Shown piece after piece: positions 3,600-36,166 of a stretch of 36,552 nucleotides of DNA. The notes under the pieces were generated by a model. The model was given only the letters and a program-made list of their open reading frames with translations. It ran no database searches and had not been told where the DNA came from. The position numbers and the translations under genes were made by a program. This DNA comes from Chloroflexota bacterium (GTDB lineage: Bacteria; Chloroflexota; UBA6077; JACQUR01), in the NCBI GenBank assembly GCA_016210245.1, contig JACQUR010000066.1, forward strand, positions 1 to 36,552. Reading direction: 5' to 3'. Position 1 is the stretch's first letter. Each line of letters opens with the position of its first letter.

Positions 3600-3792
3600 C
3601 AATCCCTCCTGCCCTCCTGGAAAGCCGCTGGGAGGCTCACGCGGTTTGCAGAGCCTTGCCAGAGCGCATTCTACCGAGCGGAGGTGCCGCCGTCCAACGC
3701 GAAGTAGGCCGGGCTTGCGCCGCGGGTGAGGGAAGGAGTGGCAGGCGGCAGCAGGGCGGGCGGCGGTGCGTTGGCGCGAGGGTGGAGTAGGA

Positions 3793-6938: not shown

Positions 6939-6966
6939 CTGCCTTCTGCCTTCTGCCTTCTGCCGC
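6939..6966. repeat. Heptamer tandem repeat CTGCCTT x3 plus degenerate CTGCCGC. Same unit, in cyclic permutation, as the array at 207-234.
   Basis: ctgcctt at 6939, 6946 and 6953 and ctgccgc at 6960. It sits between the convergent gene ends at 6851 (+) and 6973 (-). Confidence 0.9.
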
Positions 6967-17474: not shown

Positions 17475-17576
17475 GCAGATTTGAGATTTGAGATTTGAGA
17501 TTTGAGAGTGCAGAATGCAGAGTGTTCAATCTGCACTCTGCATTCTCAAATCTCAAATCTCAAATCTCAAATCTGC
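17475..17576. repeat. Near-perfect ~100-bp inverted repeat built from AGATTTG x4 arrays
   Basis: Left arm is gcagatttgagatttgagatttgagatttgaga(gtgcaga)atgcagagtg. The right arm is its reverse complement without the bracketed heptamer. It lies between the GT4 stop (17585) and the GH57 start (17465), which run in the same direction. Confidence 0.95.
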
Positions 17577-20814: not shown

Positions 20815-21840
20815 GTGGCGGCGGTCGGCTGCTCCTACCGCCACGCGCCTCTATTTGCTAAAATCCTCTCTGTGAGAGAGCCCAGGCTGGCGCGAGATGG
20901 TGTTCTGCGCCCCTCTGGAATCATCGATACCCTCTCGGCCGGCTACGGCATCGTCAATCGGCGGATCTGGATCCTCCTCATCCCGATCCTCCTGGACCTG
21001 TTTCTCTGGCTCGGGCCGCAGGTATCTGTGTCGCCGCTGGTGGGGCAGGCGCTGACCCGCTGGGGGGCGCCCGCCAGCCTCACGCTCGAGCAGGTCCAGG
21101 CGATCGACGAGGCGCGGCGCAGCGTCATGAGTGCGGCGGATGAGTTCAACCTCCTGTCGCTGCTGTCGTCCGGCCTGGTCGGGGTGCCGAGCCTGGTGGT
21201 CGTGATTGGCGGGCAGGGACCATTCCAGCTCATCGACAACTGGAGCATGGCCCTCGGGGTAGCGCTGGGGGCCGCACTGCTTGGACTGGCGTCAGGCTGC
21301 ACGTACTACGTCCTGCTCGCGCAGCAGGTGCGCGGCAGCGTTGGCGGCGCCACCCTCCCGTGGCGCGCGCTCGGCCACCTGTGGCCGGCCTGGCGGCGGG
21401 TGATGGGCCTGCTGCTGGTCCTGGCCGGGCTGGGCGTCCTGCTGGGGTTGCCGCTTGCCTTCGTGCTGGCCGGCGCGGCGCTGGTGAGCCCGGTGCTGGC
21501 CAGCATCGGCCTGGCTTGCGTGCTGATGGCGCTGGTCTGGCTGCAGCTCTACCTGTTCTTTGCGCCAGGCGCCATCTTCGTCAGCCAGGTGGGGCCGCTG
21601 CAGGCGATCCGGGGGAGCGTGGCCGTGGTGCGCGCCCATTTCTGGCCGGCGGTGCTCTTGATCACGCTCATCTGGGTCATTCTCCTGGGCATGGCCCAGG
21701 TCTGGGTACGCCTGGCGACGAGCCCGGGCGGCACCCTGGTGGGCATCCTGGGCAATGCCTACATCGCCAGCGGCCTGGTAGCAGCGAACCTCGTCTTCTA
21801 CCAGGAGCGGATGGGGCGAAAAGAGAGTGCTGAGCGCTGA
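20815..21840 (+). CDS. Polytopic membrane protein of unknown function
   Basis: GTG at 20815 follows GGGAGA. It has several hydrophobic spans (IWILLIPILLDLFLWLG, LLVLAGLGVLLGLPLAFVLAGAALV...). Its last five codons and stop lie in the heptamer array. Confidence 0.7.
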   Translation: MAAVGCSYRHAPLFAKILSVREPRLARDGVLRPSGIIDTLSAGYGIVNRRIWILLIPILLDLFLWLGPQVSVSPLVGQALTRWGAPASLTLEQVQAIDEARRSVMSAADEFNLLSLLSSGLVGVPSLVVVIGGQGPFQLIDNWSMALGVALGAALLGLASGCTYYVLLAQQVRGSVGGATLPWRALGHLWPAWRRVMGLLLVLAGLGVLLGLPLAFVLAGAALVSPVLASIGLACVLMALVWLQLYLFFAPGAIFVSQVGPLQAIRGSVAVVRAHFWPAVLLITLIWVILLGMAQVWVRLATSPGGTLVGILGNAYIASGLVAANLVFYQERMGRKESAER

Positions 21841-21915
21841 GTGCTGAGTGCTGAGTGCCTGGGCGGACACGCAGGTCCGCCCCTACTCAGCACTCAGCAC
21901 TCAGCACTCAGCACT
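21826..21915. repeat. Inverted arrays of AGTGCTG heptamers flanking a GC-rich 8-bp stem (GGGCGGAC/GTCCGCCC)
   Basis: agtgctg agcgctg agtgctg agtgctg agtgcct, then gggcggac acgcag gtccgccc, then c tactcagc actcagc actcagc actcagc act. It ends one nt before the gyrB RBS GGAGGAAGG. Confidence 0.95.
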
Positions 21916-21927
21916 GGAGGAAGGCTG

Positions 21928-24900
21928 TTGACTGACCAAGTGGACGTTCTGGACACGCCTCTGGAGACATCGAGCTACACGGCTGCCTCTATCCAGGTGC
22001 TGGAAGGCCTGGAGGCGGTACGGCGGCGGCCTGGCATGTACATCGGCAGCACCGACGTGCGCGGGTTGCACCACCTGGTCTACGAGGTGGTGGATAACTC
22101 GGTGGACGAGGCGCTGGCCGGCTACTGCCGCCATATCACCGTGACCATCCACCCGGATGAGAGCGTGACCGTCGAGGACGATGGGCGCGGCATCCCGGTG
22201 GGGGTCCACCCGCAGCAGCAGCGCTCGGCGCTGGAGGTGGTCATGACCGTCCTCCACGCCGGCGGTAAGTTTGGCGGGGGGGGCTACAAGGTTTCCGGCG
22301 GCCTGCACGGCGTCGGCATCTCGGTGGTCAACGCCCTGTCCGAGAGGTGCCTGGTGGAGGTGCGCGCCTCCGATGTGCCCGGCGTGTGGGTCCAGGAGTT
22401 CCGCCGCGGGGCGCCGGTTGGCCCGGTCCAGCGTACCAGCGACCTCCAGGGCCCCACGGGCACCACCACCACCTTCCTGGCCGATCGACAGATCTTCGAT
22501 AGCCTGGACTACAACTTCGACGCTCTGGCCCAGCGCTTCCGCGAAACCGCCTACCTGACCAAGGGCCTGCGGATCAAGTTCGTCGACGAGCGGCACGAGC
22601 GCGACTACTCGTTTTACTTCGAGGGCGGGATCGTCTCGTTCGTGCGCCACCTGAATAAGACCCGCACGGTGCTGCAGCCGCAGCCGATGTACGTGGAGAA
22701 GCAGGTCAACGGCACGCTGGTGGAGGTGGCGCTCCAGTACAACGACGGTTACGCCGAGTCGGTCTTCTGCTTCGCCAACAACATCAACACGGTCGATGGC
22801 GGCACCCATCTGACCGGCTTCCGCTCCGCGCTGACCCGCACCCTGAACGACTACGCTCGCAAGGTCGGCCTGCTCAAGGAGAGCGACCCCAATCTGACGG
22901 GCGACGACGTGCGCGAGGGGCTGACCGCGATCATCAGCGTGAAGCTGCGCGAGCCCCAGTTCGAGGGCCAGACCAAGGGCAAGCTGGGCAACGCCGAGGT
23001 CAAGACCCACGTGGAGAGCGTGGTCGGCGAGGCGCTGGGCCAGTACCTGGAGGAGCACCCGAGCGAGGGGCGACGGATCATCGAGAAGTGTCTGACCGCC
23101 GCGCGCGCCCGCGAGGCCGCGCGCAAGGCCCGCGACCTGGTCATCCGCAAGAGCGCCCTGGAGGGCCTCACCCTGCCCGGCAAGCTGGCCGACTGCTCGG
23201 AGCGCAACCCGGAGCGGTGCGAGCTGTACATCGTGGAGGGGGATAGCGCCGGTGGCTGTTTGGCGGGAGAGACGCTCGTACCCCTGGCCTCCGGGCTGGT
23301 CAAGACGATGCAAGAACTGGCCGAGGACTGGGCGCGGGGCATTCAGCACTTTGGCTACGCCACCAACGAGGCCGGAGACATCCGCATCGTGCCCTTGATC
23401 GAGCCGCGCCTGACTAAGCGGCAGACGGCCCTGGTGGAAGTCCTGCTGGACACCGGCGAGCGCATTCGCTGCACCCCCGATCATCCCTTCCGTCTGCGGG
23501 ACGGGTCTTACCGAGCGGCCAGCGAGCTCCAGCCGGGCGAGAGCCTGATGCCGCTCAAGACCCGGCGAACGGGCGAGGACGAGCTGCCGGCGCGTGGCTA
23601 CGAGATGGTCTGGATGAACGGGCGGGCGGAATGGTGGCACACGCACCATCTTGCAGACCTCTACAACCTCCTCACCAGCGTGTACACGCGCAAGGCCGGC
23701 AATGTCCGGCATCACCAGGACTTCAACAAGCTCAACAACGATCCACGCAATCTTGTGCGGATGCCCTGGCGAGCGCATCAGCGTCTCCACGCCGAGCTTG
23801 CCGGCGAAATGAGCCGGCGTCTCTGGCAGGATCCGGGTTACCGCGCGCGCAGGATTCGACAACTGAGCGAGCAAGCTGTCCTGCAATGGCAAGACCCCGC
23901 CTATCGCCAGTACATGACCGAGCGGGTCAAGGTACAGCGTCAAGACGCGGTGCTCACGGAGAAGGTGCTGCAAGGCTTCCAGGATTGGTTCGCGTCACTG
24001 ACGCCACAGGAGTACGAGGCGTACTGCGAGCGCATGCGGGGCATGCAGACGGCTTACTGGGCGAGCTTCGACCATCGCCGAGCGCAGTCTGAGCGGACGC
24101 GACGCTTCTTTGAGGAGCATCCGGAAGCGCGAGCGCAGCGACGCGAGGCAGCGCTAACCCAGTGGGGGAACGCCGAGTTGCGCGCCTGGCGATCGGAGAA
24201 GACGCGCGAGCAGTGGCAAGAGGAGGCCTATCGTCGCCTGCATGCCACGCAGGTCAGCCAGTGGTGGCAGGAGCACCCAGAGCACCGCGAGAAGATTGCT
24301 GCTGCTCTCAGGCGCCGCTGGGCCGACGAGCATCAGCGGGAGCGCGCGTTGAACGCCCTGGCCGACTGGCGGGCCTCTACTTCCACCGGCGAGAAGAGTG
24401 AGCGGATCCGAGCAGGGCATGGGCTGAAGGCACTGCTGCTGCTCAATCGCGTGCTGAACTCCAAGGATGTAAGGCAAACTTACGAACAGGTTCGGCTGCA
24501 AGCGGCACCAACGGCTCTGGGCTACGACCGCCTCGCTCGGGACCACTTTGGTGGAGACGAGGCGAGGATGCTCGAGGCTGCGGCCAACGTGAACTGCAAG
24601 GTCGTCGCCGTCCGAGTGCTGGAGGACTCAGCCGACGTCTACGATCTCACGGTCGAGGGCTATCACAACTTCGCGCTGGCGAGCGGAGTGTTCGTACACA
24701 ACAGCGCCAAGCAGGCGCGCGACCGCCGCTTCCAGGCTATTCTGCCTATTCGGGGCAAGATCCTGAACGTGGAGCGGGCGCGCGAGGACAAGATGCTCTC
24801 CAACGAAGAGATCCGGTCCATGATCACCGCCCTGGGCGTGGGCATTGGCGAGCACTTCGACATCAGCAAGCTGCGCTACGGCCGCATCTTGCTGATGGCC

Positions 24901-25326
24901 GATGCTGATGTCGACGGAAGTCATATCCGCACGCTGTTGCTGACCTTCTTCTTCCGCCATATGGTGAAGGTCATCACGGATGGCCACCTCTACATCGCCC
25001 AGCCGCCGCTGTTCCGCGTGCAGAACGGCAAGGAGGTGCGTTACGCCTTCAGCGACCAGGAGCGCGACGCCATCTACGCCGAGTTCCGAAAGAAGAGCCG
25101 GGCGGCCGAGTTCCCCACCCAGCGCTACAAGGGTCTGGGCGAGATGAACCCCGAGCAGCTCTGGGAGACGACCATGAACCCGGACACGCGCACCGTGCTC
25201 AAGGTGGAGCTGGAGGACGCGCTCCAGGCGGACGAGGTGTTCGACATGCTCATGGGCGAGGCGGTGCTGCCGCGCAAGAAGTTCATCCAGGCCCACGCCA
25301 AGTTCGTGCGGAACCTGGACGTGTAG
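21928..25326 (+). CDS. gyrB: DNA gyrase subunit B, interrupted by an intein (650 aa after splicing)
   Basis: YTAASIQVLEGLEAVRRRPGMYIGS, HHLVYEVVDNSVDEA and the Toprim EGDSAGG / SAKQARDRRFQAILPIRGKILNVE. TTG at 21928 is 7 nt after GGAGG. The ORF-track start at 21841 lies inside the repeat hairpin. Confidence 0.9.
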   Translation: MTDQVDVLDTPLETSSYTAASIQVLEGLEAVRRRPGMYIGSTDVRGLHHLVYEVVDNSVDEALAGYCRHITVTIHPDESVTVEDDGRGIPVGVHPQQQRSALEVVMTVLHAGGKFGGGGYKVSGGLHGVGISVVNALSERCLVEVRASDVPGVWVQEFRRGAPVGPVQRTSDLQGPTGTTTTFLADRQIFDSLDYNFDALAQRFRETAYLTKGLRIKFVDERHERDYSFYFEGGIVSFVRHLNKTRTVLQPQPMYVEKQVNGTLVEVALQYNDGYAESVFCFANNINTVDGGTHLTGFRSALTRTLNDYARKVGLLKESDPNLTGDDVREGLTAIISVKLREPQFEGQTKGKLGNAEVKTHVESVVGEALGQYLEEHPSEGRRIIEKCLTAARAREAARKARDLVIRKSALEGLTLPGKLADCSERNPERCELYIVEGDSAGGCLAGETLVPLASGLVKTMQELAEDWARGIQHFGYATNEAGDIRIVPLIEPRLTKRQTALVEVLLDTGERIRCTPDHPFRLRDGSYRAASELQPGESLMPLKTRRTGEDELPARGYEMVWMNGRAEWWHTHHLADLYNLLTSVYTRKAGNVRHHQDFNKLNNDPRNLVRMPWRAHQRLHAELAGEMSRRLWQDPGYRARRIRQLSEQAVLQWQDPAYRQYMTERVKVQRQDAVLTEKVLQGFQDWFASLTPQEYEAYCERMRGMQTAYWASFDHRRAQSERTRRFFEEHPEARAQRREAALTQWGNAELRAWRSEKTREQWQEEAYRRLHATQVSQWWQEHPEHREKIAAALRRRWADEHQRERALNALADWRASTSTGEKSERIRAGHGLKALLLLNRVLNSKDVRQTYEQVRLQAAPTALGYDRLARDHFGGDEARMLEAAANVNCKVVAVRVLEDSADVYDLTVEGYHNFALASGVFVHNSAKQARDRRFQAILPIRGKILNVERAREDKMLSNEEIRSMITALGVGIGEHFDISKLRYGRILLMADADVDGSHIRTLLLTFFFRHMVKVITDGHLYIAQPPLFRVQNGKEVRYAFSDQERDAIYAEFRKKSRAAEFPTQRYKGLGEMNPEQLWETTMNPDTRTVLKVELEDALQADEVFDMLMGEAVLPRKKFIQAHAKFVRNLDV
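23257..24702 (+). mobile_element. GyrB intein (482 aa) with an HNH-type endonuclease module
   Basis: Begins with Cys (CLAGETLVPL) immediately after EGDSAGG. Block B is CTPDHPF. The HNH module is HHQDFNKLNNDPRNLVRMPWRAHQRLH. It ends VYDLTVEGYHNFALASGVFVHN, followed by the +1 Ser (SAKQ). Confidence 0.9.
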
Positions 25327-25535
25327 CAGGCTTCGATCGCCCCACAGACTACGAGTTCCTGCGAAACCGCGCCTGTGGGGTACCCGCCGCGTCATGCCTC
25401 GCTACGATCGCTCATGGTGGGCCTCCTCTCCGCACCATGCATTGCCTGCTGGACAAAGAGCAGCGGATAAGGCCGGGCGCGCCCAGGCGGACTTGGGCGT
25501 ATCCGCGGCTCAGATTGCGGAAGGGGAGGACGAGC

Positions 25536-25557
25536 AAAGCCCCCGGAGGGGGGCTTT
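25536..25557. terminator. Bidirectional intrinsic-terminator-like hairpin AAAGCCCCC-GGAG-GGGGGCTTT
   Basis: A 6-bp GC stem plus A/T extensions, with TTT on both strands. It lies 210 nt after the gyrB stop and 66 nt beyond the ancestral tRNA 3' end fragment. Confidence 0.55.
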
Positions 25558-25623
25558 CACAGCGGGGACAGGGGCCGTTTTCGGCGGTTTGACGCCAGAA
25601 AAGGAGGGACACGGTGGTAGCTT

Positions 25624-25667
25624 GGTAGCCCCGGGGCGACTCGAACGCCCGACAAACGGTTTAGGAA
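25624..25667 (-). repeat. attL: displaced 3' portion of tRNA-Arg (anticodon loop to CC), 44-bp direct repeat of 33445-33488
   Basis: ggtagccccggggcgactcgaacgcccgacaaacggtttaggaa is identical at both sites. Identity ends inside the anticodon loop. Confidence 0.9.
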
Positions 25668-25773
25668 TTCCCGCCTAGCCCTCCGTAGGCGTCCACAAAC
25701 GTCCGCATACCGCACCAAACCGCTCCGCTTCGTCCGCCCTTTTCCGCCCTTTTCCGCCCGAGTCTGCCCGTTT

Positions 25774-25794
25774 GGCTGTCAGATTGGCTGTCAG
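25774..25794 (+). repeat. Arm-type repeat pair GGCTGTCAG-N3-GGCTGTCAG (candidate integrase arm sites, left end)
   Basis: gtttggctgtcagattggctgtcag. A near-identical pair lies at 33336-33356 with the same orientation, the same 12-bp spacing and a similar distance (~100 bp) from the att core. Confidence 0.6.
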
Positions 25795-25848
25795 AATGTT
25801 GCGCTGGCGAAGGCTGGAACGTTGCACGCAGAAAGGGGCGGGCAGCCC

Positions 25849-26059
25849 GTGCGAGCCGCCCGCCCGTGGGCGTCCTGGCAAAACCAGCGAAATGATTTCG
25901 CTGGTTTTCGTGCGAGCCGCCCGCCCGTGGGCGTCCTCTCGGCGGTAACATCGTGTTACCACCGGGAGACGTGCGAGCCGCCCGCCCGTGGGCGTCCTGT
26001 CCTCAGAAAACGGCGAAATGATTTCGCTGTTGTGCGAGCCGCCCGCCCGTGGGCGTCCT
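25849..26059. CRISPR. CRISPR-format array: 4 identical 28-bp repeats and 3 spacers of 33 bp. Atypical, because every spacer is a hairpin palindrome. True nature unresolved.
   Basis: GTGCGAGCCGCCCGCCCGTGGGCGTCCT at 25849, 25910, 25971 and 26032, an exact 61-bp period. Spacers are at 25877-25909, 25938-25970 and 25999-26031. No cas gene is in the window. Confidence 0.5.
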
Positions 26060-26448
26060 ACCGCCCCCGCTCGGCGCACCTCGGGCACCTCGGCCCGTCG
26101 GTGGTCGCCACGTAGCTGGCCAGCGCCGTCCAGCGGTCGCAGCCGCTGGGCAGGAACGTGGCGCGGGCCAGGGGGGCACGCGGTAGCGGGGGTGGCGCTC
26201 CTGGGCGCCAGGGGGCGCCGTGGTCGTGTGGTCAACTTGGTCATGCCCAGGGTCTCCTTCTCCTGCTGTTAGGGGCTCTGCGGCCCGGTGGACGGCCGAT
26301 GCACGCAGGTTCCGGGTTGCGACAAAAGCGACATATGCGACCAAAGTCCGCCCCCTCTCTGGCCACCGTGGTGGTCATCGCGTCCTTCCATAGAAGTGGG
26401 CTCTGCGGCCCGGTGGGGGTCGGAACGTGGTGGCTCCGGCCGCCACCG

Positions 26449-26490
26449 GGCCACTCCCCCGGACGGAGGGCCCCGGCCGGGGGAGTGGCC
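26449..26490 (-). terminator. Strong hairpin directly after the stop of the 26491-26835 gene
   Basis: GGCCACTCCCCCGG (26449-26462) and CCGGGGGAGTGGCC (26477-26490) are perfect 14-bp complements. Confidence 0.7.
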
Positions 26491-26835
26491 CTACTCAGTC
26501 CCCAGCACCCAGCGCTCCCAGGACGCTGCGACCTTCACCACGTCCCCCGACTTCGCGGCCTCGCGTGAGGCCAGGAAGGTAGCCGCGGCCGCCAGCAGGG
26601 CCAGCCGTCGTGCCGCCTGCTCCGGGTCGGGCTGGGGCTCGCTCGGGTCCACCACGGCCAGGGCTCGAATCTGGCCGCCGTCGACTTCCACCCGAACCTG
26701 CTGGCCGCGGGCAACCTGGGGCACGTTGCCCGGATCTGCGAACCTGAGCCAGTGGCCCGCCAGGCGGAGGCCAGCCCGATTGACCACCTCAACCGTGCCG
26801 CTGAGGCTGTCTGCCTTGCCGTTCGTCGCCATCAT
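26491..26835 (-). CDS. Island hypothetical protein (114 aa), possibly OB-fold-like
   Basis: ATGATG at 26835/26832 follows GGAGAGAAGG. The sequence is MMATNGKADSLSGTVEVVNRAGLRLAGHWLRF...VRVEVDGGQIRALAVV. The fold guess rests on the beta-rich pattern only. Confidence 0.6.
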   Translation of the reverse strand: MMATNGKADSLSGTVEVVNRAGLRLAGHWLRFADPGNVPQVARGQQVRVEVDGGQIRALAVVDPSEPQPDPEQAARRLALLAAAATFLASREAAKSGDVVKVAASWERWVLGTE

Positions 26836-27156
26836 CGCCTTCTCTCCAGGGGGTGAACGCCCTTCGGCCGGGACCACCCGGCCGAAGGCGTTCCTGGGGC
26901 TCAGTCGCCAGCGCTATTGCTCCATGCCGTGCGGCAAGCGGGCAAGCTACTGGCGCCACGCCGACAAGCGCCGGGCCGAGAAACGCGAGCAGTACCACCG
27001 ACGGAAAGGCCAGCCCGCGGGCGAGGTGCCACCGGGGCAGGATGGCCAAGGCAGCGCGTAGCGTGCTCTGAGACGCACGTAGGGCCACAGGGCTCTTCGG
27101 CGCTCGGGGTGCGACTCCATGTAGCCGATGCCGAGGTCGGCGAGGGTGGGTCTATC

Positions 27157-27187
27157 GTCTGGCGGTAACACGATGTTAGCGCCAGAC
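27157..27187. repeat. Hairpin GTCTGGCG-GTAACACGATGTTAG-CGCCAGAC. Its core is near-identical to array spacer 2.
   Basis: Outer 8-bp arms are perfect complements. The inner GGTAACACGATGTTA (15 nt) is identical to the minus-sense reading of spacer 2. Confidence 0.85.
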
Positions 27188-27265
27188 GCACGTGGAAGGC
27201 CGACAGGGCTCTTCTCGGCTCAGGGTGGCTCCTGGACCACCGCAGGGTTGTGCGGGATCTCGGTC

Positions 27266-27688
27266 CTACCGCCACCCCAGCCGAGCCGCGATGGCGACCA
27301 GGATGCCCCGACGGCGCAGGTAGAACGTCTCGCGGCTGATGCACAACTCGTCGGCCACCTGCTGCACGGACCAGTGTCGCCAGTAGGCCAGCTCAACCAA
27401 ACGCCGATGCTCGAGTGGCAACTGCTCGTAGACAGCGTGGATGGTGTCCACCACGCGGGCCATTTCGCGCAGCAGACAGTCACTCGCCAGCAGGGTGGCG
27501 GCAAAGCCCGTAGGGTCGCTCACTCGGTGGGAGCCGCCGTGCAGACGGGTGTAGTCCCGCCCGAGCCCCTGGGTAGCAATCTCCTCACGGCGCTGCTCCA
27601 CGGCACGCCGCGTCTCCTGGTACGCCCGCAACTCGGCTTCCAGGAGACGGGCGGTTTCGGGGCGAAGGCGCGTATCGGCACACGTCAT
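27266..27688 (-). CDS. Sigma-70 region-4-like / phage late-activator-like (RinA/ArpU-style) regulator
   Basis: LPLEHRRLVELAYWRHWSVQQVADELCISRETFYLRRRGILVAIAARLGW is a region-4-type HTH. Its ATG overlaps the upstream stop (ATGA at 27685-27688). Confidence 0.65.
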   Translation of the reverse strand: MTCADTRLRPETARLLEAELRAYQETRRAVEQRREEIATQGLGRDYTRLHGGSHRVSDPTGFAATLLASDCLLREMARVVDTIHAVYEQLPLEHRRLVELAYWRHWSVQQVADELCISRETFYLRRRGILVAIAARLGWR

Positions 27689-27915
27689 TGGGCGTGCTGC
27701 TGGCGAAAGGCGTTGAATCTGGCCAGAGCCGCCTGCTGCTCGGGCGTGATGGCCGCGCCTGAGCCCGCGGACTGCCGCGCTCGTGCCAGCCCTTCGAGCA
27801 AATCCAGGTCGGCGTCGCTCACCTGGGACAACGCCCGCGCGGTCGCCACGTCGGCGCTCGGCGAGGCAGGCTCCCGCTGTTCCAGGCGTTGAATGCGTCC
27901 GCTCAACTTGCACAC
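27685..27915 (-). CDS. Island hypothetical protein (76 aa)
   Basis: Translationally coupled at both ends: a 13-nt overlap upstream and an ATGA overlap downstream. The sequence is helical. Confidence 0.55.
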   Translation of the reverse strand: MCKLSGRIQRLEQREPASPSADVATARALSQVSDADLDLLEGLARARQSAGSGAAITPEQQAALARFNAFRQQHAQ

Positions 27916-28310
27916 GGTCGTGCCTCCTTCCGTTGCGCCGCGCCCGCCTCCAACTCGGCCACCCGCCGCTCCAGGTTCTCACTCTCACGCAGCCTGACGC
28001 CCAGCTCCAGAATCGCTTTCGCCGCGCCCAACCTGGTGGCAGGCGGGCCGCTCGCCAGCAATCCCCGCAGGGCGGTTACCGCCTCGCCCGAGGCCGCGCC
28101 CAGGGCAGCCACCGCCGATGCCAGCGTCGCAGCCTGCGCCGCGGCCAACTGGCTGCGGAAGGCGGGATCTGCCAGTCGACGGCGTACCGTCCGCTCGCTG
28201 ACGCCCGCCTGCTTGGCCGCGCTCTGGAGAGTCTGGCCGCCCGACAAGGCGACCACCAGGGCCGAATCGGCGCTGTGGCGGCCATTGGCGGCCACTGGCG
28301 GCCTCATCAC
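27903..28310 (-). CDS. HTH protein of the type often annotated as phage small terminase / HTH_23-like
   Basis: LSGGQTLQSAAKQAGVSERTVRRRLADPAFRSQL, followed by ...RLGAAKAILELG...ENLERRVAELE. An ATGA overlap links it to the upstream gene. Confidence 0.6.
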   Translation of the reverse strand: MMRPPVAANGRHSADSALVVALSGGQTLQSAAKQAGVSERTVRRRLADPAFRSQLAAAQAATLASAVAALGAASGEAVTALRGLLASGPPATRLGAAKAILELGVRLRESENLERRVAELEAGAAQRKEARPCAS

Positions 28311-28756
28311 GCGCCCGCCATGAGCAGGGCCAGGCTCGTCCGCCGCGCGGCCAACTTCTCCTCGGACGCAGCGTGCCGCCGTCGCCGCGCGGCCAGTTCG
28401 CCCTCGGCGTCCCGAATCGCGGCCGCGCTGGTCGCTACCTGGTTCTCGGCATCCGCGATGCCGTGATGCAGGCCGACGATTACCATCTCCACGTCGCCGC
28501 GCACGGTCGCTGCCCGCTCGCGCTGGCGGGTTAACTCGAGCGCTCGGCCCCGTAGGCGGGCGAGAACTAGTTCCAAGCCGTCGCGCTGGCTCACCAGCCT
28601 GGCCAGCGTCGATGGGTCGGGGGGCGCCACGTCGAACGCGCGGTTCAACTCAGCCAGTTCGTGTTCCCGCCGTTGCACCTCGCGGCCTGCGTCCTGCTCC
28701 CGCTGTTGCGCCTGCTGCTCCTGCTCGATTGCTTGGGCCAGTGTTATCGTTGCCAT
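28307..28756 (-). CDS. Island coiled-coil protein (149 aa)
   Basis: ATG at 28756 follows AAGGAG. The sequence is Gln/Glu/Arg-rich with heptad-like character. Confidence 0.6.
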   Translation of the reverse strand: MATITLAQAIEQEQQAQQREQDAGREVQRREHELAELNRAFDVAPPDPSTLARLVSQRDGLELVLARLRGRALELTRQRERAATVRGDVEMVIVGLHHGIADAENQVATSAAAIRDAEGELAARRRRHAASEEKLAARRTSLALLMAGA

Positions 28757-29032
28757 GACGTTGCTCCTTGTTGCGTTGGGTTGGGGCCGAACGGGTTAGC
28801 CTGCCATTCGTGCTCGGCAAGGAACGCCTTGAGACTACCGCGCCGCATCAGCCTGTCTCGCTGGCCCGCTACCACGCCTTGCTCGGGTGCCGTGAGCGTC
28901 GCGGTCGGCACGTCGACCACCCAGGCCGTTGCCAGGGCGCCGTGAGCGTCGCCCGAGCAAGGCGTGGTAGCGGGCCAGCAACTCGCCCACCGTCCTGGGT
29001 GGGGTCGGGGTGGTCGTCTGCGTCGACTTCAC
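28744..29032 (-). pseudogene. Small island gene whose coding signal switches frame inside an inverted repeat (frameshifted or recoded)
   Basis: GTG at 29032 overlaps the upstream TGA (GTGA) and reads VKSTQTTTPTPPRTVGELLARYHALLG with very high third-position GC. Past about 28950 the +1 frame carries the coding-like signal (DAHGALATAWVVDVPTATLTAPEQGVVAGQRDRLMRRGSLKAFLAEHEW...) and ends at the TAA at 28744. Confidence 0.35.
28861..28978. repeat. Perfect 27-bp inverted repeat separated by 64 bp, with a 14-bp direct repeat on the inner side of each arm
   Basis: ctggcccgctaccacgccttgctcggg (28861-28887) and cccgagcaaggcgtggtagcgggccag (28952-28978). gccgtgagcgtcgc occurs at 28889-28902 and 28939-28952. 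Confidence 0.95.
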
Positions 29033-29502
29033 CTTCGCCCCTCCAATCCGCCCCGCTGCACCTCGACCACGGCCATGACAGCCCGTGCCGCCGCCTCCGT
29101 GCAGGGCAGGCAGCGGTAGATCCGCTCTGGTAGCAGTTCAGCACCGCACCCCAAGCATGCCTGCGGTCGGGGCAGCAGGTGGTCGGGCTGGGCAGGGTAG
29201 AGCGGCAAGCCCTGCTCGCACCAGGAGCAGCGCTCGGCCTGCTGCTCGGGGTAACTCAGCCAACGGCGATGGGTCGGGCAGTAGCCACCCATGTCGGCGG
29301 GCAACAACAGCGGGGGTGCCGCAACGGTTGCGAGTTGCTGGTCAGCCAGGATGCGCAACAACTCGGGCTTGTGGGCCAGCAGTTCGGCCTTCAACTCGGG
29401 TGTGAGTGTACCCCTGGGCGCGCTCACACGCAGGTGCTCACCATCGACTCTCAGGCGCACGTCCGCCGCGCCCAGTCGCTCCAGTAATGTGGCCGCGCTC
29501 AT
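29029..29502 (-). CDS. Protein with a TubC-N-like docking-type N-terminus and a Cys-rich (zinc-ribbon-like) C-terminus
   Basis: LLERLGAADVRLRVDGEHLRVSAPRGTLTPELKAELLAHKPELLRIL, then CPTH...CSWC...CLGC...CLPC. Confidence 0.65.
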   Translation of the reverse strand: MSAATLLERLGAADVRLRVDGEHLRVSAPRGTLTPELKAELLAHKPELLRILADQQLATVAAPPLLLPADMGGYCPTHRRWLSYPEQQAERCSWCEQGLPLYPAQPDHLLPRPQACLGCGAELLPERIYRCLPCTEAAARAVMAVVEVQRGGLEGRR

Positions 29503-30863
29503 AGCTGGGCCTCCTCTCGTTCGGTCGGGGTGGGTGCCCAGGGCAGTTCGCCCCCGAAGGTGCTCATCGGGGGCTGAAGGTGCTCATTATTCTGGACGTG
29601 AGCATCTTCGGGGTGGATGAGCATCTTCGGGGGCAGTTGCCACGTCCAGGGCCCGGCCATGCCCTGCTTGGTGGGCGTGATGCCCAGGGCGGTCTTGGCT
29701 CGGCGCAGCGTAATCTCGCTGATGCCTGCCGCTCGCGCCTCGCGCTGTACGTCTTTCGCTGGGCTCGGCCCGTCCGCCAGCAGCTCGCGCAGGAAGTCCC
29801 TTGCCTCGGCCAGCGCGCCCCGTTCCTCCCCGTCGGCGCTCTGTGCCAGCAGTGATGACGCAGTGTGTTGCACCGCACCCTCCCAGACCACGCGCACGGC
29901 GCCGCCTGCAACAGCCTCCAGGTGGTAGGCCAGCGCTGGCGGGGGCTCGGACAGGTTAGACTTGCTGCTGGCCAGGATGCGACGCGCCCCGTCGGGCAGG
30001 TCAGGGTCTGGCGCCACCAGCAACCCGCTCCGCACGGCGCCAATGATGCCGATGCTACCGCCGCCACGATAGAGCGGGTTGCCCCCCGTCGCCTTGTTCA
30101 GGTGGCGCACGGCCACCACGGCTACGTCTGTTTCGGCAGCTAAGGCGGCCAAGGGTGCCAGCACTCGCCGCACGTCCGCGTCGCGGAAGCTATTGGTGGC
30201 GCTGGGTAGAAACGCCATCACGGGATCCACGACCACCAGTCGGGCGTCGACGCGGGCGATGGCCTCGCGGATGGCGTCCAGGTCGGCCACAGTCGGCAGG
30301 TCCGGGCGCGCCGTCGCCGGTCGCTCGGGGTCGGGACTGGGTTCGAGCCGCAGCACTGCCTTGAGCGCCACGATGCGCGATACATCCGCCCCGGCCGCAT
30401 CTAAGCGGGGACGGATGGTATCGGCTAAGTCATCCTCAGCAGACAACAACACCACTCCGGCCGGCCCATCCAGGTCGCTCCGGGCGCCGTCGGGCATGGT
30501 GCCCCCCACGCTCACCCTGGCGGCCAGGTCTGTGGTGATGGCGGATTTGCCCAAGCCTGGGTCCCCGTCCAAAACGGTGAGTTTGCCCAGGGGCACACGC
30601 CCAGGCCACAGCCAGGAGACGCGCTCGGGCTGCACGTCGGCCAGCGAGACCAGGACCGCCCCCGTGGCTGGGGCGGGTTGAGGCGGGGGCATGGTGGTTG
30701 CGGGTGGCGCCGCGTGGTCCTGCCCGTTGCGGGTGGCGCCCGTCGCCGTCTCGGGCCCGGGCTCGCCAGCGCGCAACAGCGTGAACTGCCAGTGCGCACC
30801 GTCGAAATGGTCCCGGTAGTGCTCGCCCTGCTCGGGACGGCACTGAGCGATGCAGTCGTGCAT
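29499..30863 (-). CDS. AAA_25/RepA-like (RecA-fold) replication ATPase
   Basis: WLWPGRVPLGKLTVLDGDPGLGKSAITTDLAARVS (Walker A), VVLLSAEDD, and the C-terminal HTH-like ARAAGISEITLRRAKTALGI. I chose the ATG at 30863, which overlaps the upstream stop (TGATG). Confidence 0.8.
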   Translation of the reverse strand: MHDCIAQCRPEQGEHYRDHFDGAHWQFTLLRAGEPGPETATGATRNGQDHAAPPATTMPPPQPAPATGAVLVSLADVQPERVSWLWPGRVPLGKLTVLDGDPGLGKSAITTDLAARVSVGGTMPDGARSDLDGPAGVVLLSAEDDLADTIRPRLDAAGADVSRIVALKAVLRLEPSPDPERPATARPDLPTVADLDAIREAIARVDARLVVVDPVMAFLPSATNSFRDADVRRVLAPLAALAAETDVAVVAVRHLNKATGGNPLYRGGGSIGIIGAVRSGLLVAPDPDLPDGARRILASSKSNLSEPPPALAYHLEAVAGGAVRVVWEGAVQHTASSLLAQSADGEERGALAEARDFLRELLADGPSPAKDVQREARAAGISEITLRRAKTALGITPTKQGMAGPWTWQLPPKMLIHPEDAHVQNNEHLQPPMSTFGGELPWAPTPTEREEAQL

Positions 30864-31114
30864 CACGCTGCACCCCGCTGGTCGCGGCAGTAGCAGCACC
30901 CGCACGGGTCGGGCAGTATGTTCCGCTCCGCCGCCACCTCGGCCGGCGGGATGGTCGCACGGTGGCACCCGCTGCCCACCGGCGGATACGCGGGCACCAG
31001 CCGACCGGCGGCGCCCTGCCGCCAGGCGCCCAGCAGCTCGCACACCACGATACCGTCCCTATAGCTGCGCAGCACGCGATGGCCGCGGGGGCAGTGGGTC
31101 GTATCAGTGGCCAC
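30863..31114 (-). CDS. Small Cys-rich island protein (83 aa)
   Basis: High third-position GC. Cys/His clusters HCPRGH, VVCE, GCH and PCGCCYC. It is coupled to both neighbours. Confidence 0.5.
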   Translation of the reverse strand: MATDTTHCPRGHRVLRSYRDGIVVCELLGAWRQGAAGRLVPAYPPVGSGCHRATIPPAEVAAERNILPDPCGCCYCRDQRGAA

Positions 31115-31304
31115 TGCCCGCCACCTCGGCCATGCGGTCGCGGACGAACCGCTCGACCTCGGCCGCCGGGACGCGCATGGCCGAGCCGACGCGGATGGCC
31201 CGTAGCTCGCCGCGGGCGAGTAGCTCGTACGCGACCGTGCGGCTCACGCCCAGCGCCTCTGCCGCTTCCGCCACGCGGTACAGGACTCGTCCTACTGCTG
31301 CCAT
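31104..31304 (-). CDS. Excisionase/AlpA-MerR-like HTH DNA-binding protein
   Basis: LYRVAEAAEALGVSRTVAYELLARGELRAIRVGSAMRVPAAEVERFV is the classic Xis-type HTH_17 pattern. RBS is GGAGGT. Confidence 0.8.
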   Translation of the reverse strand: MAAVGRVLYRVAEAAEALGVSRTVAYELLARGELRAIRVGSAMRVPAAEVERFVRDRMAEVAGSGH

Positions 31305-31325: not shown

Positions 31326-31398
31326 TTGCGTTCCGCCCGTGTCCGTAGTATACTATTCCCGATGTGGCGAAAGGGTCGGCACATCGCGGCCACATCGC
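31326..31398. promoter_or_regulatory. Divergent switch region: TTGCGT-N17-TATACT promoter with a palindromic -10 (AGTATACT), plus operator-like repeats
   Basis: TTGCGT at 31326-31331 and TATACT at 31349-31354. AGTATACT reads the same on both strands. GATGTGGC at 31361-31368 is inverted relative to GCCACATC at 31389-31396. CACATCGC is direct at 31380 and 31391. Confidence 0.4.
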
Positions 31399-31426
31399 CA
31401 TTTCAGTGGGGCGGGAGGGAGGCGAC

Positions 31427-32131
31427 ATGCCACAGAAGCCGATAGCCCAGGATTGGCGGGACCAGGTGTACACCCTGTGCGGCTCGGGCAGGAAGCGCTC
31501 AGTCGTAGAGATGTTCCAGCTTCTAGAGGCGGAGGGAATCAGGCTCGGGCGAAACGACTATCCGAGCAAGCGCTCACTCAACCGAATCCGAGACGACTTC
31601 CACCGGCTGCCCGAGCCGCAGCAGCGCGAGTACGGCCAGGTACGCTGGCCAGACAGCTTCGGGCGGGGCGACCTCCCCTGGGAGGCCGGCCGCGCGGCGC
31701 TGGACTTGCTCCGCTTCCACGATGAGCAGGGGCTCGACCGTCCAACCGTGCGCCATGTCCGCTGGTTCTGGCGCGTGGGCATGGCGGCTCCTGGAATCCC
31801 CACCCAGGACGCGGACCGGTTGTCCGAGCACCTTGCCACTGCCGAGTTTTTGGCCGTGGCCAATCTCGGGACCACGGAGGTTCAGGGGCTCGAATGGCTG
31901 CTCGCCTACCAGCCGTGGCGGAGCGACGATGATGCCGCGGCCTACCAACGCCTGGCCGCACGGCAGGACGTACCCAGGTATCCCACGCTGGTGGCGACCA
32001 GCGTCCTGGATGGCACCCCCGAGGCGCTCAGGAGCTTCTATCAGGCTCTGCTCGGCCCCACGTCCGGACAGGAGCGGTACGAGCAGGTCGCCCGTGCCCT
32101 CTATAAGGAAGGAGAGGCCACCGATGGCTAA
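31427..32131 (+). CDS. Island hypothetical protein (234 aa) upstream of and overlapping the integrase
   Basis: ATG at 31427 follows GGGAGGGAGG. It overlaps the integrase start by 8 nt. No family recognised. Confidence 0.65.
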   Translation: MPQKPIAQDWRDQVYTLCGSGRKRSVVEMFQLLEAEGIRLGRNDYPSKRSLNRIRDDFHRLPEPQQREYGQVRWPDSFGRGDLPWEAGRAALDLLRFHDEQGLDRPTVRHVRWFWRVGMAAPGIPTQDADRLSEHLATAEFLAVANLGTTEVQGLEWLLAYQPWRSDDDAAAYQRLAARQDVPRYPTLVATSVLDGTPEALRSFYQALLGPTSGQERYEQVARALYKEGEATDG

Positions 32132-33275
32132 GCAACGCGGCCGCCGTGGGCACGGGGAGGGTTCGATTCATCAGCGCGAGGATGGCCGCTGGGTGGCGGT
32201 CGTCGACCAGGGTTGGAAGGACGGCAAGCGCCAACGCAAGTACCTCTACGGAGAGACGCGCAGGGAGGTGAGCGAGAAGTTGAAGGCAGCGCTGCACGAC
32301 CAGGCGGCAGGCCTGCCGTTGCCCTCAGAGCGGCAGACGGTGGGCCAGTTCCTGGAGCGCTGGTTAGAGGATTCGGCCAAGCCCAATGTACGCCCCCGGA
32401 CCTTCACCCGCTACCACGACCTGCTCACCCTGCATGCCATCCCGACGCTCGGCAAGCGCCCCCTGGCCAAACTCTCGGCCCAGGACCTCCAGGCGCTGTA
32501 CGGCCAGAAACTTGACCAGCTCGCCGCGCGCACGGTCGGCCACCTCCACCGGGTGCTGCATTGCGCGCTACGGGACGCGCTGCGCTGGGGGCTGGTGGCG
32601 CGGAACGTGTGCGATGCCGTCCAGCCGCCCAAGGTGGCGCGCCCGGAGATGCAGGTGCTTGCGCCCGAGCAGGCGCGCCAGTTGCTCGCCGCTGCCGATG
32701 GGGAGCCCCTGGAGGCGCTGTACGTGCTGGCCGTCACGGCCGGACTGCGCCAGGGCGAGTTGTTCGGCCTGAAGTGGCAGGACCTCGACCTCGAGGCCGG
32801 CCGGCTCCAGGTGCGCCGCACCCTGGGCCGTGTGCGCAAGCAGGGCTTCCTGGAGAGCGAGCCCAAGAGCGCCCGCAGCCGCCGCAGCATCACCCTCACG
32901 CCCCTGGCCATCGGCGCGCTTCGGCACCACCGGGCGCGCCAACTCGAGCAGCGGTTGGCAGTCGGCTCGGCCTGGGAAGACCGCGGGCTGGTCTTCTGCA
33001 ACGCGGTCGGTCGGCCCCTGGAGCCCAGCAACCTGCTGCGCCGCTCGTGGCGGCCGCTGCTGAAGAAGGCTGGCCTGCCCCGGATCCGCTTCCACGACTT
33101 GCGCCATACCGCAGCCACGCTCCTGCTCGCCCAAGGGGTGCATCCCAAGATAGTTCAGGAGATGCTCGGCCACAGCACCATCAGCCTCACCCTGGACACC
33201 TACTCCCACCTCCTGCCCAACCTCCAGGACGAAGCGGCCGCCAAGATGCAGGCCATCCTGGTCCGCCTGAAGTAG
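32124..33275 (+). CDS. Tyrosine recombinase / phage integrase
   Basis: ATG at 32124 follows AAGGAAGGAGAGG. The N-terminal arm/SAM-like region is GSIHQREDGRWVAVVDQG...KRQRKYLYGETRREV. The catalytic region is GLRQGEL...RFHDLRHTAATLLL...LGHSTISLTLDTYSH. Confidence 0.9.
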   Translation: MAKQRGRRGHGEGSIHQREDGRWVAVVDQGWKDGKRQRKYLYGETRREVSEKLKAALHDQAAGLPLPSERQTVGQFLERWLEDSAKPNVRPRTFTRYHDLLTLHAIPTLGKRPLAKLSAQDLQALYGQKLDQLAARTVGHLHRVLHCALRDALRWGLVARNVCDAVQPPKVARPEMQVLAPEQARQLLAAADGEPLEALYVLAVTAGLRQGELFGLKWQDLDLEAGRLQVRRTLGRVRKQGFLESEPKSARSRRSITLTPLAIGALRHHRARQLEQRLAVGSAWEDRGLVFCNAVGRPLEPSNLLRRSWRPLLKKAGLPRIRFHDLRHTAATLLLAQGVHPKIVQEMLGHSTISLTLDTYSHLLPNLQDEAAAKMQAILVRLK

Positions 33276-33294: not shown

Positions 33295-33335
33295 AAACGC
33301 CCCGGCATGGTCCCGAAGGCCATCCCGGGGCGTTT
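33295..33335 (+). terminator. Intrinsic terminator of the integrase gene
   Basis: AAACGCCCCGG (33295-33305) pairs with CCGGGGCGTTT (33325-33335). It lies 20 nt after the stop. Confidence 0.65.
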
Positions 33336-33356
33336 GGCTGTCAGTTAGGCTGTCAA
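33336..33356 (+). repeat. Arm-type repeat pair GGCTGTCAG-N3-GGCTGTCAA (right end)
   Basis: gtttggctgtcagttaggctgtcaa, the counterpart of 25774-25794. Confidence 0.6.
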
Positions 33357-33443: not shown

Positions 33444-33519
33444 GGGTAGCCCCGGGGCGACTCGAACGCCCGACAAACGGTTTAGGAAACCGCTGCTCTA
33501 TCCTCTGAGCTACGGGGCC
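33444..33519 (-). tRNA. tRNA-Arg (anticodon CCU). The 3' terminus encodes CCC rather than CCA.
   Basis: Hand-folded cloverleaf: acceptor GGCCCCG/CGGGGCT (G1-U72), D arm GCTC-AGAGGATA-GAGC, anticodon arm GCGGT-TTCCTAA-ACCGT, variable TTGTC, T arm GGGCG-TTCGAGT-CGCCC, discriminator A. Confidence 0.9.
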
Positions 33520-35102: not shown

Positions 35103-35282
35103 TGCACGTAACCGGCGCGTAACTCACGGCCGAGCAGGAAGGCCACCACCCAGCCCGCCACGAACAAGGCCATCTGAGCAGGCTCCACCAGCGTCCCCAA
35201 CAGCAGCGTGCCACCCACGCGGGATGGCCAGGTGCGCATTATGGGACGCCAGAACCGGCGGCGTCAAGGCGCGGCCGAGCTT

Positions 35283-35338
35283 GAGTGCTGAGTGCTGAGT
35301 GCTGAGTGCTGAGTGCTGAGTGCTGAGTGCTGAGTGCT
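35283..35338. repeat. Heptamer tandem repeat GAGTGCT x8. Same unit as the arrays upstream of gyrB.
   Basis: Eight exact copies read directly. The array ends 10 nt before the stop of the four-helix-bundle gene. Confidence 0.95.
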
Positions 35339-35348
35339 GAGAGAAGAG

Positions 35349-35738
35349 TTATTTGTTTGGTTTGACGTTTTTTCTTTGTTTTTCAACAGAAACTCGAAGA
35401 CCACCTATAACTCTGGAAACCTCTTCTGATTGAAGGCGTAGTTGGTCGAATCGAGATTGATCCAGATAGCCCACATCGAACGCAACATAGAGGTGTGAAC
35501 GAACCTCAGCACAAGAAGATTTTGCTGTGGAAAGAAATTGATGAAATTCTCCCAATCCACTTCTCTCGAAGCCCTCGGCAACATTTGACATGATAGAAAC
35601 GGCCGCTCGTTGAATTTGCCCGGATAGTCCAAAGTCTTTAACGAATTTGCCCTGTCGAGAGACTTCGTAGACCGCACGAGTTAATGCTCTGGCTTTCTGC
35701 CAAGCGATCAGCTCTTCAAACCTCTCTACTTTGCTCAT
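35349..35738 (-). CDS. Four-helix-bundle protein (23S rRNA intervening-sequence protein / Avd-like family)
   Basis: [20 protein letters not shown]...[20 protein letters not shown]...[23 protein letters not shown] matches the family pattern. Two 60-nt lines counted by hand are 45% G+C, against about 70% in the flanks. Confidence 0.85.
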
Positions 35739-35768
35739 CGTTCATCCTCTTAACTCTTGATGTTTTTA

Positions 35769-35803
35769 CTCAGGACTCAGGACTCAGGACTCAGGACTCA
35801 GGA
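35769..35803. repeat. Heptamer tandem repeat CTCAGGA x5
   Basis: Five exact copies. The DUF423 stop codon (35798-35800) lies inside the last copies. Confidence 0.95.
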
Positions 35804-36166
35804 CTGATAGACCCCCCACGCCAGGCAGGCCCACCCGGCCAAAAAGGCCAGGCCGCCGAAGGGGGTGACGGCCCCCAGCCAGCGGACGCCGGTGAGGCTC
35901 AGGGCGTAGAGGCTGCCGGAGAAGAGGATGGTTCCGGCGAGGAACAGGTAGCCGGAGGCCGAGACCGCCGGGCCGGGCCAGCGGGTGACGGCCCAGGCCA
36001 CGGCGAGCAGGGCGAGGGCGTGGTACATGTGGTAGCGCGCGCCCACCTCGAAGACGTTGAACAGGTCGGGCTCCAGGCGGGTCTTGAGGGCGTGCGCGCC
36101 GAAGGCGCCGGCGGCTACGGCAAGGAAGGCAGACACAGCGCCGAGGGAGAAGAAGAGGCGATCCAT
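35798..36166 (-). CDS. DUF423 (YgdD/TMEM256-like) membrane protein
   Basis: FGAHALK...ARYHMYHALALL...GTILFSGSLY pattern. ATG at 36166 follows AAGGGG. Confidence 0.8.
   Translation of the reverse strand: MDRLFFSLGAVSAFLAVAAGAFGAHALKTRLEPDLFNVFEVGARYHMYHALALLAVAWAVTRWPGPAVSASGYLFLAGTILFSGSLYALSLTGVRWLGAVTPFGGLAFLAGWACLAWGVYQS

Follow-up and report, generated by a model that had tools for sequence, protein, structure and literature searches.

We analysed a 36,552-nucleotide stretch of DNA from a Chloroflexota bacterium (contig JACQUR010000066.1 of assembly GCA_016210245.1), referred to below as the window. Between positions 25849 and 26059 it carries a short array in CRISPR format, in which four copies of a 28-mer (R1 to R4) alternate with three 33-nt units (S1 to S3). 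The array is located 181 bp inside the attR end of a 7.8-kb integrated island. The array and the stretch that separates it from p128, the last island gene before it, comprise the following features.

25849..25876, minus strand: repeat R1, exact 28-mer; last repeat if transcription is on the minus strand
25877..25909, minus strand: unit S1, 33 nt, 45% GC, perfect 14-bp palindrome with a 1-nt centre
25910..25937, minus strand: repeat R2, exact 28-mer
25938..25970, minus strand: unit S2, 33 nt, 61% GC, 7-3-7 palindrome
25971..25998, minus strand: repeat R3, exact 28-mer
25999..26031, minus strand: unit S3, 33 nt, 45% GC, variant S1 hairpin with a shift of 4 nt
26032..26059, minus strand: repeat R4, exact 28-mer; leader-adjacent if transcription is on the minus strand
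26060..26490, minus strand: stretch in leader position, 431 bp, non-coding, GC-rich, between p128 and the array

Exact matching confirmed the geometry described in the original prediction, namely four identical 28-bp repeats at an exact period (61/61/61 bp) enclosing three units of equal length (33/33/33 nt). The 28-mer GTGCGAGCCGCCCGCCCGTGGGCGTCCT was found four times in the window, at the positions listed above, each time on the plus strand and with 0 mismatches, and no further copy appeared when 3 mismatches were allowed. The same search of 100 shuffles gave 0 matches. The boundaries of the repeats are abrupt. A degenerate fifth repeat was sought in both flanks without success, the best local scores (16-18) being no higher than background (mean 18.6). 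The GC content of the repeat reaches 82%, as compared to about 70% for the window. CRISPR arrays are characterized by three or more direct repeats of about 23-50 bp that are nearly identical and regularly spaced, and by spacers of uniform length that are mutually unrelated in register; both features were found here.

In the type I-E arrays of Escherichia coli, a 29-nt repeat and a 32-nt spacer effectively amount to 28 + 33 = 61 bp. The array studied here has the same 61-bp unit with a 28/33 split. Its minus strand also resembles these arrays in having a short stem with an 8-nt tail behind it and a G after three of the four repeats. It differs from type I-E arrays by its tail, which is GCUCGCAC and thus unlike the AUAAACCG type, by a repeat that matches no CRISPR-DR model of Rfam, and by the absence of both a cas gene in the window and an AT-rich leader. 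The original prediction had recognized in the repeat the layout of a Cas6-processed hairpin. The layout does resemble such a hairpin, but the 5-bp stem is no more stable than those of shuffled 28-mers of equal composition (z = -0.2 and -0.06), that is, it stands at chance level. The Cas6-type hairpin is hence a layout resemblance with no statistical signal.

The three units differ from both the repeat and the window by their lower GC content (45, 61 and 45%). As had been described, S1 is a perfect 14-bp hairpin with a 1-nt loop and with A4 and T4 on either side; its folding z-score is about -6 and it looks like a bidirectional terminator. The two other descriptions also held true: S2 contains the 7-3-7 palindrome GGTAACA-TCG-TGTTACC, which can be extended to 11 bp with one mismatch, and S3 has the 17-mer GCGAAATGATTTCGCTG in common with S1. 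S3 forms a good hairpin on the plus strand only (z = -3.0 vs -1.0), because one of its pairs is a G-U pair. S1 and S3 are identical at 10 of 33 positions, no more than chance, when compared in register and at 22 of 29 when offset by +4, and the palindrome centres are found at unit positions 18 (S1), 15 (S2) and 22 (S3), with no fixed offset. Such out-of-register homology and variable centres would be expected of capture at fixed length from similar sources, but not of a 61-bp unit that was duplicated and then diverged. Together with the GC content of the units and the outside relatives of S2 described below, they argue for a sampling of the units, at fixed length, from other DNA and against diverged copies of a single 61-bp unit.

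In order to estimate how unusual three hairpins are, we scored as positive any 33-mer able to form a perfect short-loop stem of 7 bp or more. Among random 33-mers taken from the window, the island or fetched loci, 1.2-2.0% were positive, and the proportion was 2.2% in the non-coding parts of the island. With the latter value, the hairpins are not accounted for by an intergenic origin. The probability of finding hairpins in all three units by chance is about 1e-5, or about 4e-4 if S1 and S3 are counted as a single event. The claim that all the spacers are hairpins therefore stands as a significant enrichment over background, with the restriction that S3 folds well on one strand only. The enrichment is real, and either palindromic sources were preferentially captured, or units with hairpins were retained by selection. 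It is possible, if unlikely, that hairpin-only content is itself what has been selected, the array being a guide-dead multi-copy decoy directed against the host Cas machinery, or a store of functional palindromic sites, of DNA or RNA, copied from rivals. In either case, a phage satellite would have put the CRISPR array format to a new use.

S2 has relatives outside the array. An exact-core scan of IMG/VR singled out one contig (L090, 44% GC), in which positions 3588-3616 match S2 at 28 of 29 contiguous positions and at 28 of 33 overall, while the 26 other viral contigs with the same 15-base core reached merely 16-22 of 33. The match is located in the N-terminal domain of an MT-A70 methylase gene within a phage replication module. 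The L090 segment encodes VRLGGNIVLPPE, and the plus strand of S2 reads LGGNIVLPPGD. Apart from L090, a degenerate scan for GGNIVLPP retrieved only unrelated palindromes. The island also contains a relative of S2.

27156-27188, minus strand: island palindrome homologous to S2, 33 nt, 15-bp arms with one mismatch, in a degenerate 'GANIVLPPDDRPTLADLGI' coding remnant

S2 is identical to positions 27164-27183 of this palindrome at 19 of 20 nucleotides, with indels in the flanks. The island frame reads GANIVLPPDDRPTLADLGIGYMES at this point and is 62% identical to the L090 product over 24 amino acids (E = 5.5e-4, local database), in a region otherwise devoid of coding signal. By its sequence, S2 is a fragment of a mobile-element gene family in which the DNA of this gene segment is itself palindromic. 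Together, the viral match and the island homologue make S2 look like a real spacer, whose palindrome was inherited from its source and not designed.

The surroundings of the island palindrome show further particularities. The interior stretch 26878-27265, in which it is contained, has no coding signal, but two of its reading frames hold pieces of the phage 'GGNIVLPP..TLADLGI' helix-turn-helix (HTH) domain and the peptide SHPE(P/R)RRAL is duplicated, so that the stretch looks like a decayed or frameshifted gene. The palindrome is flanked by 31-nt direct repeats (27081-27111 and 27197-27227) that are 81% identical. The segments of L090 (3588-3616) and of the window (27156-27188) have a nucleotide palindrome in common, with the core GGTAACATCGTGTTACC and arms of 14-15 bp, in a homologous coding segment. 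The occurrence of this palindrome in both a phage gene of 44% GC and an island of 70% GC suggests that it may be under selection as a DNA or RNA structure in its own right.

As for S1, its 20-nt core is identical to the top of a bidirectional terminator that separates convergent genes on another phage contig (L091); the 19-20-nt match of the S1/S3 core to this terminator is at chance level for the size of the database. A second tight palindrome, which might have placed the source of S1 and S3 in the same gene as that of S2, was sought in L090 and not found. The units had originally been judged not to be spacer-like. This judgement was not supported, in view of their foreign GC content (45-61% vs 70%), the variable palindrome offsets, the out-of-register homology of S1 and S3 and the protospacer-like 28/33 viral match of S2, together with its diverged copy in the island.

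Several features indicate that the array is likely transcribed on the minus strand. The flank 25836-25848 (minus strand) is complementary to part of R1 and matches repeat positions 6-17. In the minimum free energy structure of the minus-strand RNA, R1 and this flank form a 13-bp GC-rich hairpin with two G-U pairs, followed by CCUUUCU. The hairpin is stable on this RNA only, because the two G-U pairs become C-A mismatches on the plus strand, and we consider it a candidate terminator of the array. On the same strand, the hairpins of S1 and S3 are each followed by a U-tract (UUUUG for S1, GUUUUCUG for S3). The minus strand is also that of the upstream genes, and reading the array in this direction places the 8-nt tail after the repeat stem. 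The better folding of the S3 stem on the plus strand argues against this polarity. The statement that every upstream island gene lies on the minus strand had to be corrected, as the integrase gene and a 255-aa open reading frame (ORF) are on the plus strand.

The 431-bp stretch in leader position (26060-26490) contains two 19-nt direct repeats (at 26273 and 26398) and several hairpins, and no coding signal was found in it. An ORF that crosses the array (25675-26244, minus strand) was rejected as a gene: it has no coding signal and is absent from the protein collection. Within the leader-position stretch, a 45-codon ORF (26241-26378, minus strand) is preceded by a GGAAGGA ribosome-binding site and contains a CxxC...C motif. 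Its stop codon overlaps (ATGA) the ATG at 26244 of the ORF that runs into the array. Neither of these two ORFs is present in the protein collection, and their coding signal is weak.

In a first alternative, a CRISPR-derived array would have been retained for the production of many repeat-bearing RNAs with self-paired or terminator-ended guides. Such decoys, comparable to RNA anti-CRISPRs (Racrs), would occupy the host Cas6 or Cascade without providing working guides, and would protect the island or a helper phage. Hairpins in three of three units, far above chance, are in line with this proposal, as are the perfect conservation of all four repeats and the fact that a hairpin with a U-rich tail comes after three of the repeats when the minus strand is read (the hairpins of S3, of S1 and of R1 with its flank). 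Solitary repeat units and Racrs have moreover been documented on cas-less prophages and plasmids (PMC10651486), and the array shares with them the presence of cas-less repeat copies on a mobile element and of structured, terminator-like sequence after the repeats. However, solitary repeat units consist of a repeat that lacks a spacer of functional length and directly follows a promoter, and the Racr candidates of that study are of this kind, without spacers. Here, four repeats enclose spacers of the full canonical 33 nt, no promoter was detected, and neither a cognate system nor a cognate host repeat is known. In addition, S2 has no U-tail and its palindrome comes from a natural gene segment, and the varying palindrome offsets speak against designed units. 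We therefore regard a decoy RNA as unlikely.

Among the four candidate explanations offered by the original prediction, a mini-array carried by a mobile element gave the best fit, on the basis of the geometry, of the composition and register of the units and of the matches of S2. We tentatively propose, with a probability of about 45%, that the locus is a CRISPR-type mini-array, orphan and cas-less, in which three spacers of 33 nt separate four repeats of 28 nt, and that it is carried by a satellite-like island and used in trans. According to this proposal, a Cas1-Cas2-type ruler with type I-E/I-F geometry would have added the units singly, either in this lineage or in a donor; the behaviour of type I-E adaptation has been described (PMC4027179). 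The array would then be transcribed on the minus strand downstream of the string of island genes, by read-through or from an unrecognised promoter, transcription ending at the hairpin in which R1 pairs with its flank. A CRISPR-Cas system that the host provides in trans would process this RNA and use it, with spacers aimed at foreign or rival mobile DNA. The target of S2 may be a gene of the 'GGNIVLPP...DLGI' family on a phage or an island, and the targets of S1 and S3 may be two variants of one terminator-like hairpin. S1, which is leader-distal, would be the older and S3, which is leader-adjacent, the newer of two successive spacers acquired against variants of one locus. The island's own S2-like site would be spared owing to its mismatches and indels.

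Mini-arrays on viruses have been validated in the case of the Saccharolobus portogloboviruses SPV1 and SPV2, and viral mini-arrays have repeats equal to those of the host and spacers mostly directed against relatives of the carrier (PMC11656645). Mini-arrays that lack cas genes are already known from mobile elements. The present array resembles them in being short, cas-less and carried by a mobile element, and in the similarity of S2 to both a phage gene and a diverged copy on the carrier. By analogy, this similarity of S2 to a diverged homologue fits a mini-array that would target relatives or rivals of the island. The array differs from the viral ones by its three spacers in place of one or two, by its carrier, a tRNA-integrated Chloroflexota island, and by the palindromic nature of all its spacers. 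What would be new is a satellite-like carrier integrated in a tRNA gene of Chloroflexota, a repeat without public relative and an all-palindrome set of spacers. If this proposal is correct, a small satellite-like island carries a portable CRISPR memory without any cas gene, and the mini-array strategy of viruses extends to satellite-type islands in a little-studied phylum.

A number of results weigh against the proposal of a mini-array used in trans. No Cas family was found by Pfam among the 30 ORFs of the 36.5-kb window, so that adjacent cas genes are absent within it, and the stem of the repeat, as seen above, is not more stable than expected. No sigma-70-like promoter was found in 25300-27000, and the leader position is GC-rich. 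The 23-nt core of the repeat had 0 matches in 185,579 species-representative genomes, the JGI metagenomes and IMG/VR. The repeat belongs to no described repeat family: Rfam, including its CRISPR-DR models, gave no relevant match at E <= 10. Only chance matches were obtained when the array was compared by blastn with plasmids and phages. Assuming that spurious ORFs may have been called over sister arrays, we searched 5.8 billion predicted proteins with the six-frame peptides of the array and found none. No CRISPR-like array was present in 89 loci (738 kb) around relatives of the island helicase, a protein of the AAA_25 family. L090, at 44% GC, is unlikely to be the true target of S2 because of this composition. 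Finally, ordinary adaptation does not predict a bias towards hairpins in three of three spacers. Two further searches were negative: gapped two-copy scans of IMG/VR with each half of the repeat detected only coding tandem repeats, and a literature search for the array sequences found no paper.

A further alternative is an inert relic, a CRISPR fragment acquired by recombination and having no present function. The lack of a cas gene in the window, of a detected promoter and of any relative of the repeat in the searched collections is consistent with such a relic, as is the lineage-specific nature of the distal module of the island, in which the array is found. A relic would, on the other hand, not be expected to keep four repeats that are still 100% identical, and it leaves the three hairpins unexplained. 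We consider this explanation improbable.

The carrier was described in the original prediction as a cas-less integrative element, which the analysis of the region confirmed. Its features, including the tRNA gene in which it is inserted, are as follows.

25624..25667, minus strand: attR, 44-nt copy of the 3' part of tRNA-Arg
25772..25795, plus strand: putative integrase arm sites, two copies of TTGGCTGTCAGA, with a partner at 33332-33355
26491..26877, minus strand: p128, 114 aa from the likely start, lineage-specific, last island gene before the array
27266..27688, minus strand: RinA-family phage late-gene regulator (TIGR01636, 49.3 bits for a cut-off of 31.9; phrog_36)
27685-27915, minus strand: 76-aa protein
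27903..28310, minus strand: HTH protein with a weak small-terminase (TerS) match (phrog_2538, 1.1e-5; Sf6_terminase, 0.005, below cut-off)
28307-28756, minus strand: 149-aa protein
29029..29502, minus strand: TubC_N-domain protein, syntenic with the helicase gene in relatives
29499..30863, minus strand: AAA_25 RepA/DnaB-like helicase, the island replication protein
31104..31304, minus strand: excisionase-type HTH protein (HTH_17; TIGR01764 above cut-off)
31364-32131, plus strand: 255-aa ORF, no assigned product
32130..33275, plus strand: tyrosine integrase (PF00589, 1.5e-26; phrog_1, 1.6e-74)
33445..33519, minus strand: tRNA-Arg(CCT), whose 3' 44 nt (33445-33488) are attL

The 3' 44 nt of the tRNA-Arg(CCT) gene are perfectly repeated at 25624-25667, and these two att repeats of 44 bp delimit the 7.8-kb insertion. 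An integrase with att repeats, an excisionase-type regulator and a replication protein of its own, all features of phage satellites, were found on the island. As to the redirection of packaging, the candidates are the TerS-like protein, with its weak match, and the RinA-family protein, whose match is above the cut-off. By its gene content, the island resembles the phage-inducible chromosomal islands (PICIs) and other phage satellites, with which it shares its size, its integration in a tRNA gene with direct att repeats, and genes for an integrase, an excisionase, a replication helicase, a TerS-like protein and a RinA-family late regulator. It differs from them in having no known helper phage, no recognisable capsid-remodelling gene and a Chloroflexota host, and in the weakness of its TerS assignment. 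The structure models obtained for p128 and the 255-aa ORF (predicted local distance difference test score, pLDDT, of about 45) were unusable.

The presence of TerS-like HTH and RinA-family genes raised the question of a DNA-level role, in which the array would bind proteins for packaging (in the manner of pac or cosB), partition or replication. The TerS-like or RinA-family protein would then bind the four 28-mers, and dimeric factors the palindromes. The array does adjoin the att region, a link with CRISPR-Cas could not be shown, and the S2-like palindrome that recurs at 27156-27188 and is kept at the nucleotide level in a phage of 44% GC hints at a functional DNA site. Against this role, duplicated arrays of sites keep their register, whereas the units are non-homologous in register and their palindromes shift (18, 15, 22); the period of 61 bp corresponds to 5.8 helical turns, which places the sites out of phase; and the match to TerS is weak (1e-5) and below the Pfam cut-off. 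Iteron and centromere arrays, such as plasmid iterons or sopC of the F plasmid, likewise consist of identical DNA repeats set at regular intervals on a mobile element that replicates, and palindromes are found close to them. In the present array, by contrast, 28 of 61 bp are conserved between unrelated, out-of-register units, and neither a ParA nor a ParB gene was found in the island. Furthermore, in two relatives of the island (L061, 4670-4890, and L059, 2560-2820), the AAA_25 gene is immediately followed by iterons of 13-16 nt that occur in direct as well as inverted orientation. These iterons are probably the replication origins of the related islands, which keep them beside the rep gene. 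The island also has a separate origin candidate, the inverted repeat at 28860-28979. The iteron or centromere proposed in the original prediction is thus disfavoured, with neither Rep-adjacent iterons nor Par proteins nor helically phased sites being found, and a protein-binding array in general appears to us decidedly unlikely, if less so than a relic.

A last alternative, also among the original candidates, was the repetitive antitoxin RNA of a type III toxin-antitoxin system. The array is reminiscent of such systems in that its short tandem units close an operon carried by a mobile element. The defining features of these systems are lacking here, however: instead of contiguous repeats that are identical throughout, the array has units in which only 28 of 61 nt are constant, and no protein resembling ToxN, CptN or TenpN was detected in the island, Pfam, PADLOC and NCBIfam giving nothing for p128. 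This candidate was rejected and is hardly credible.

The distribution of the island module that contains the array is restricted. What the island has in common with the 89 loci that contain related helicases is limited to its integrase, excisionase, helicase and TubC genes, and its distal module is lineage-specific. The closest relative of the helicase (79% identity) is encoded by a metagenome-assembled genome (MAG) named 'Chloroflexi bacterium' (locus tag HY690_), from which all three homologues of p128 also come; the p128 of the window falls into the same 90%-identity cluster as two of them. The HY690_ MAG holds at least four more p128 copies (P0121, P0122, P0123 and P0125), of 73-96% identity, and two of these are cut by contig ends, as expected for an island present in multiple copies. 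This suggests that the HY690_ MAG contains several sibling islands or strain variants. If the array is indeed a mini-array, its exclusively palindromic spacers would indicate either an unrecognised acquisition bias or that structured guides serve as decoys or in regulation. These two possibilities can be tested directly, since sibling islands of the same genome would allow arrays to be compared.

Short repeats were also observed at the ends and in the interior of the island. Beside attR (25733-25795), TCCGCCCTTT is repeated 2.7 times and TTGGCTGTCAGA twice, and beside attL (33332-33355) GTTAGGCTGTCA is present twice; pairs of GGCTGTCAG occur close to both island ends. These repeats are likely binding sites for the arm domain of the integrase and for the excisionase. 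The inverted repeat at 28860-28979, in the gap between the 149-aa and TubC_N genes, has 33-nt arms that are 94% complementary and separated by 54 nt, and is a candidate for the island's origin or for a regulatory site.

The island is surrounded by ordinary chromosomal genes, among them gyrB with a putative intein, glycosyltransferases and a molybdopterin oxidoreductase. The gyrB gene (21841-25326) encodes 1161 aa with an intein-like insert (CLAGETLV ... VHNS). Perfect heptamer tandem repeats of 3.6-8.6 copies were observed in intergenic regions of the window, at 173-235, 1200-1224, 6939-6964, 17477-17574, 21825-21915 and 35282-35805. They are reminiscent of the short tandem heptamers of cyanobacteria. 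Two kinds are often paired near each other, as in AGATTTG (4.4 copies) with TCTCAAA (4.4 copies) and TGAGTGC (8.6 copies) with ACTCAGG (5.4 copies), and the heptamers GAGTGCT (4.9 copies) and ACTCAGC (4.4 copies) are located around the start of gyrB.

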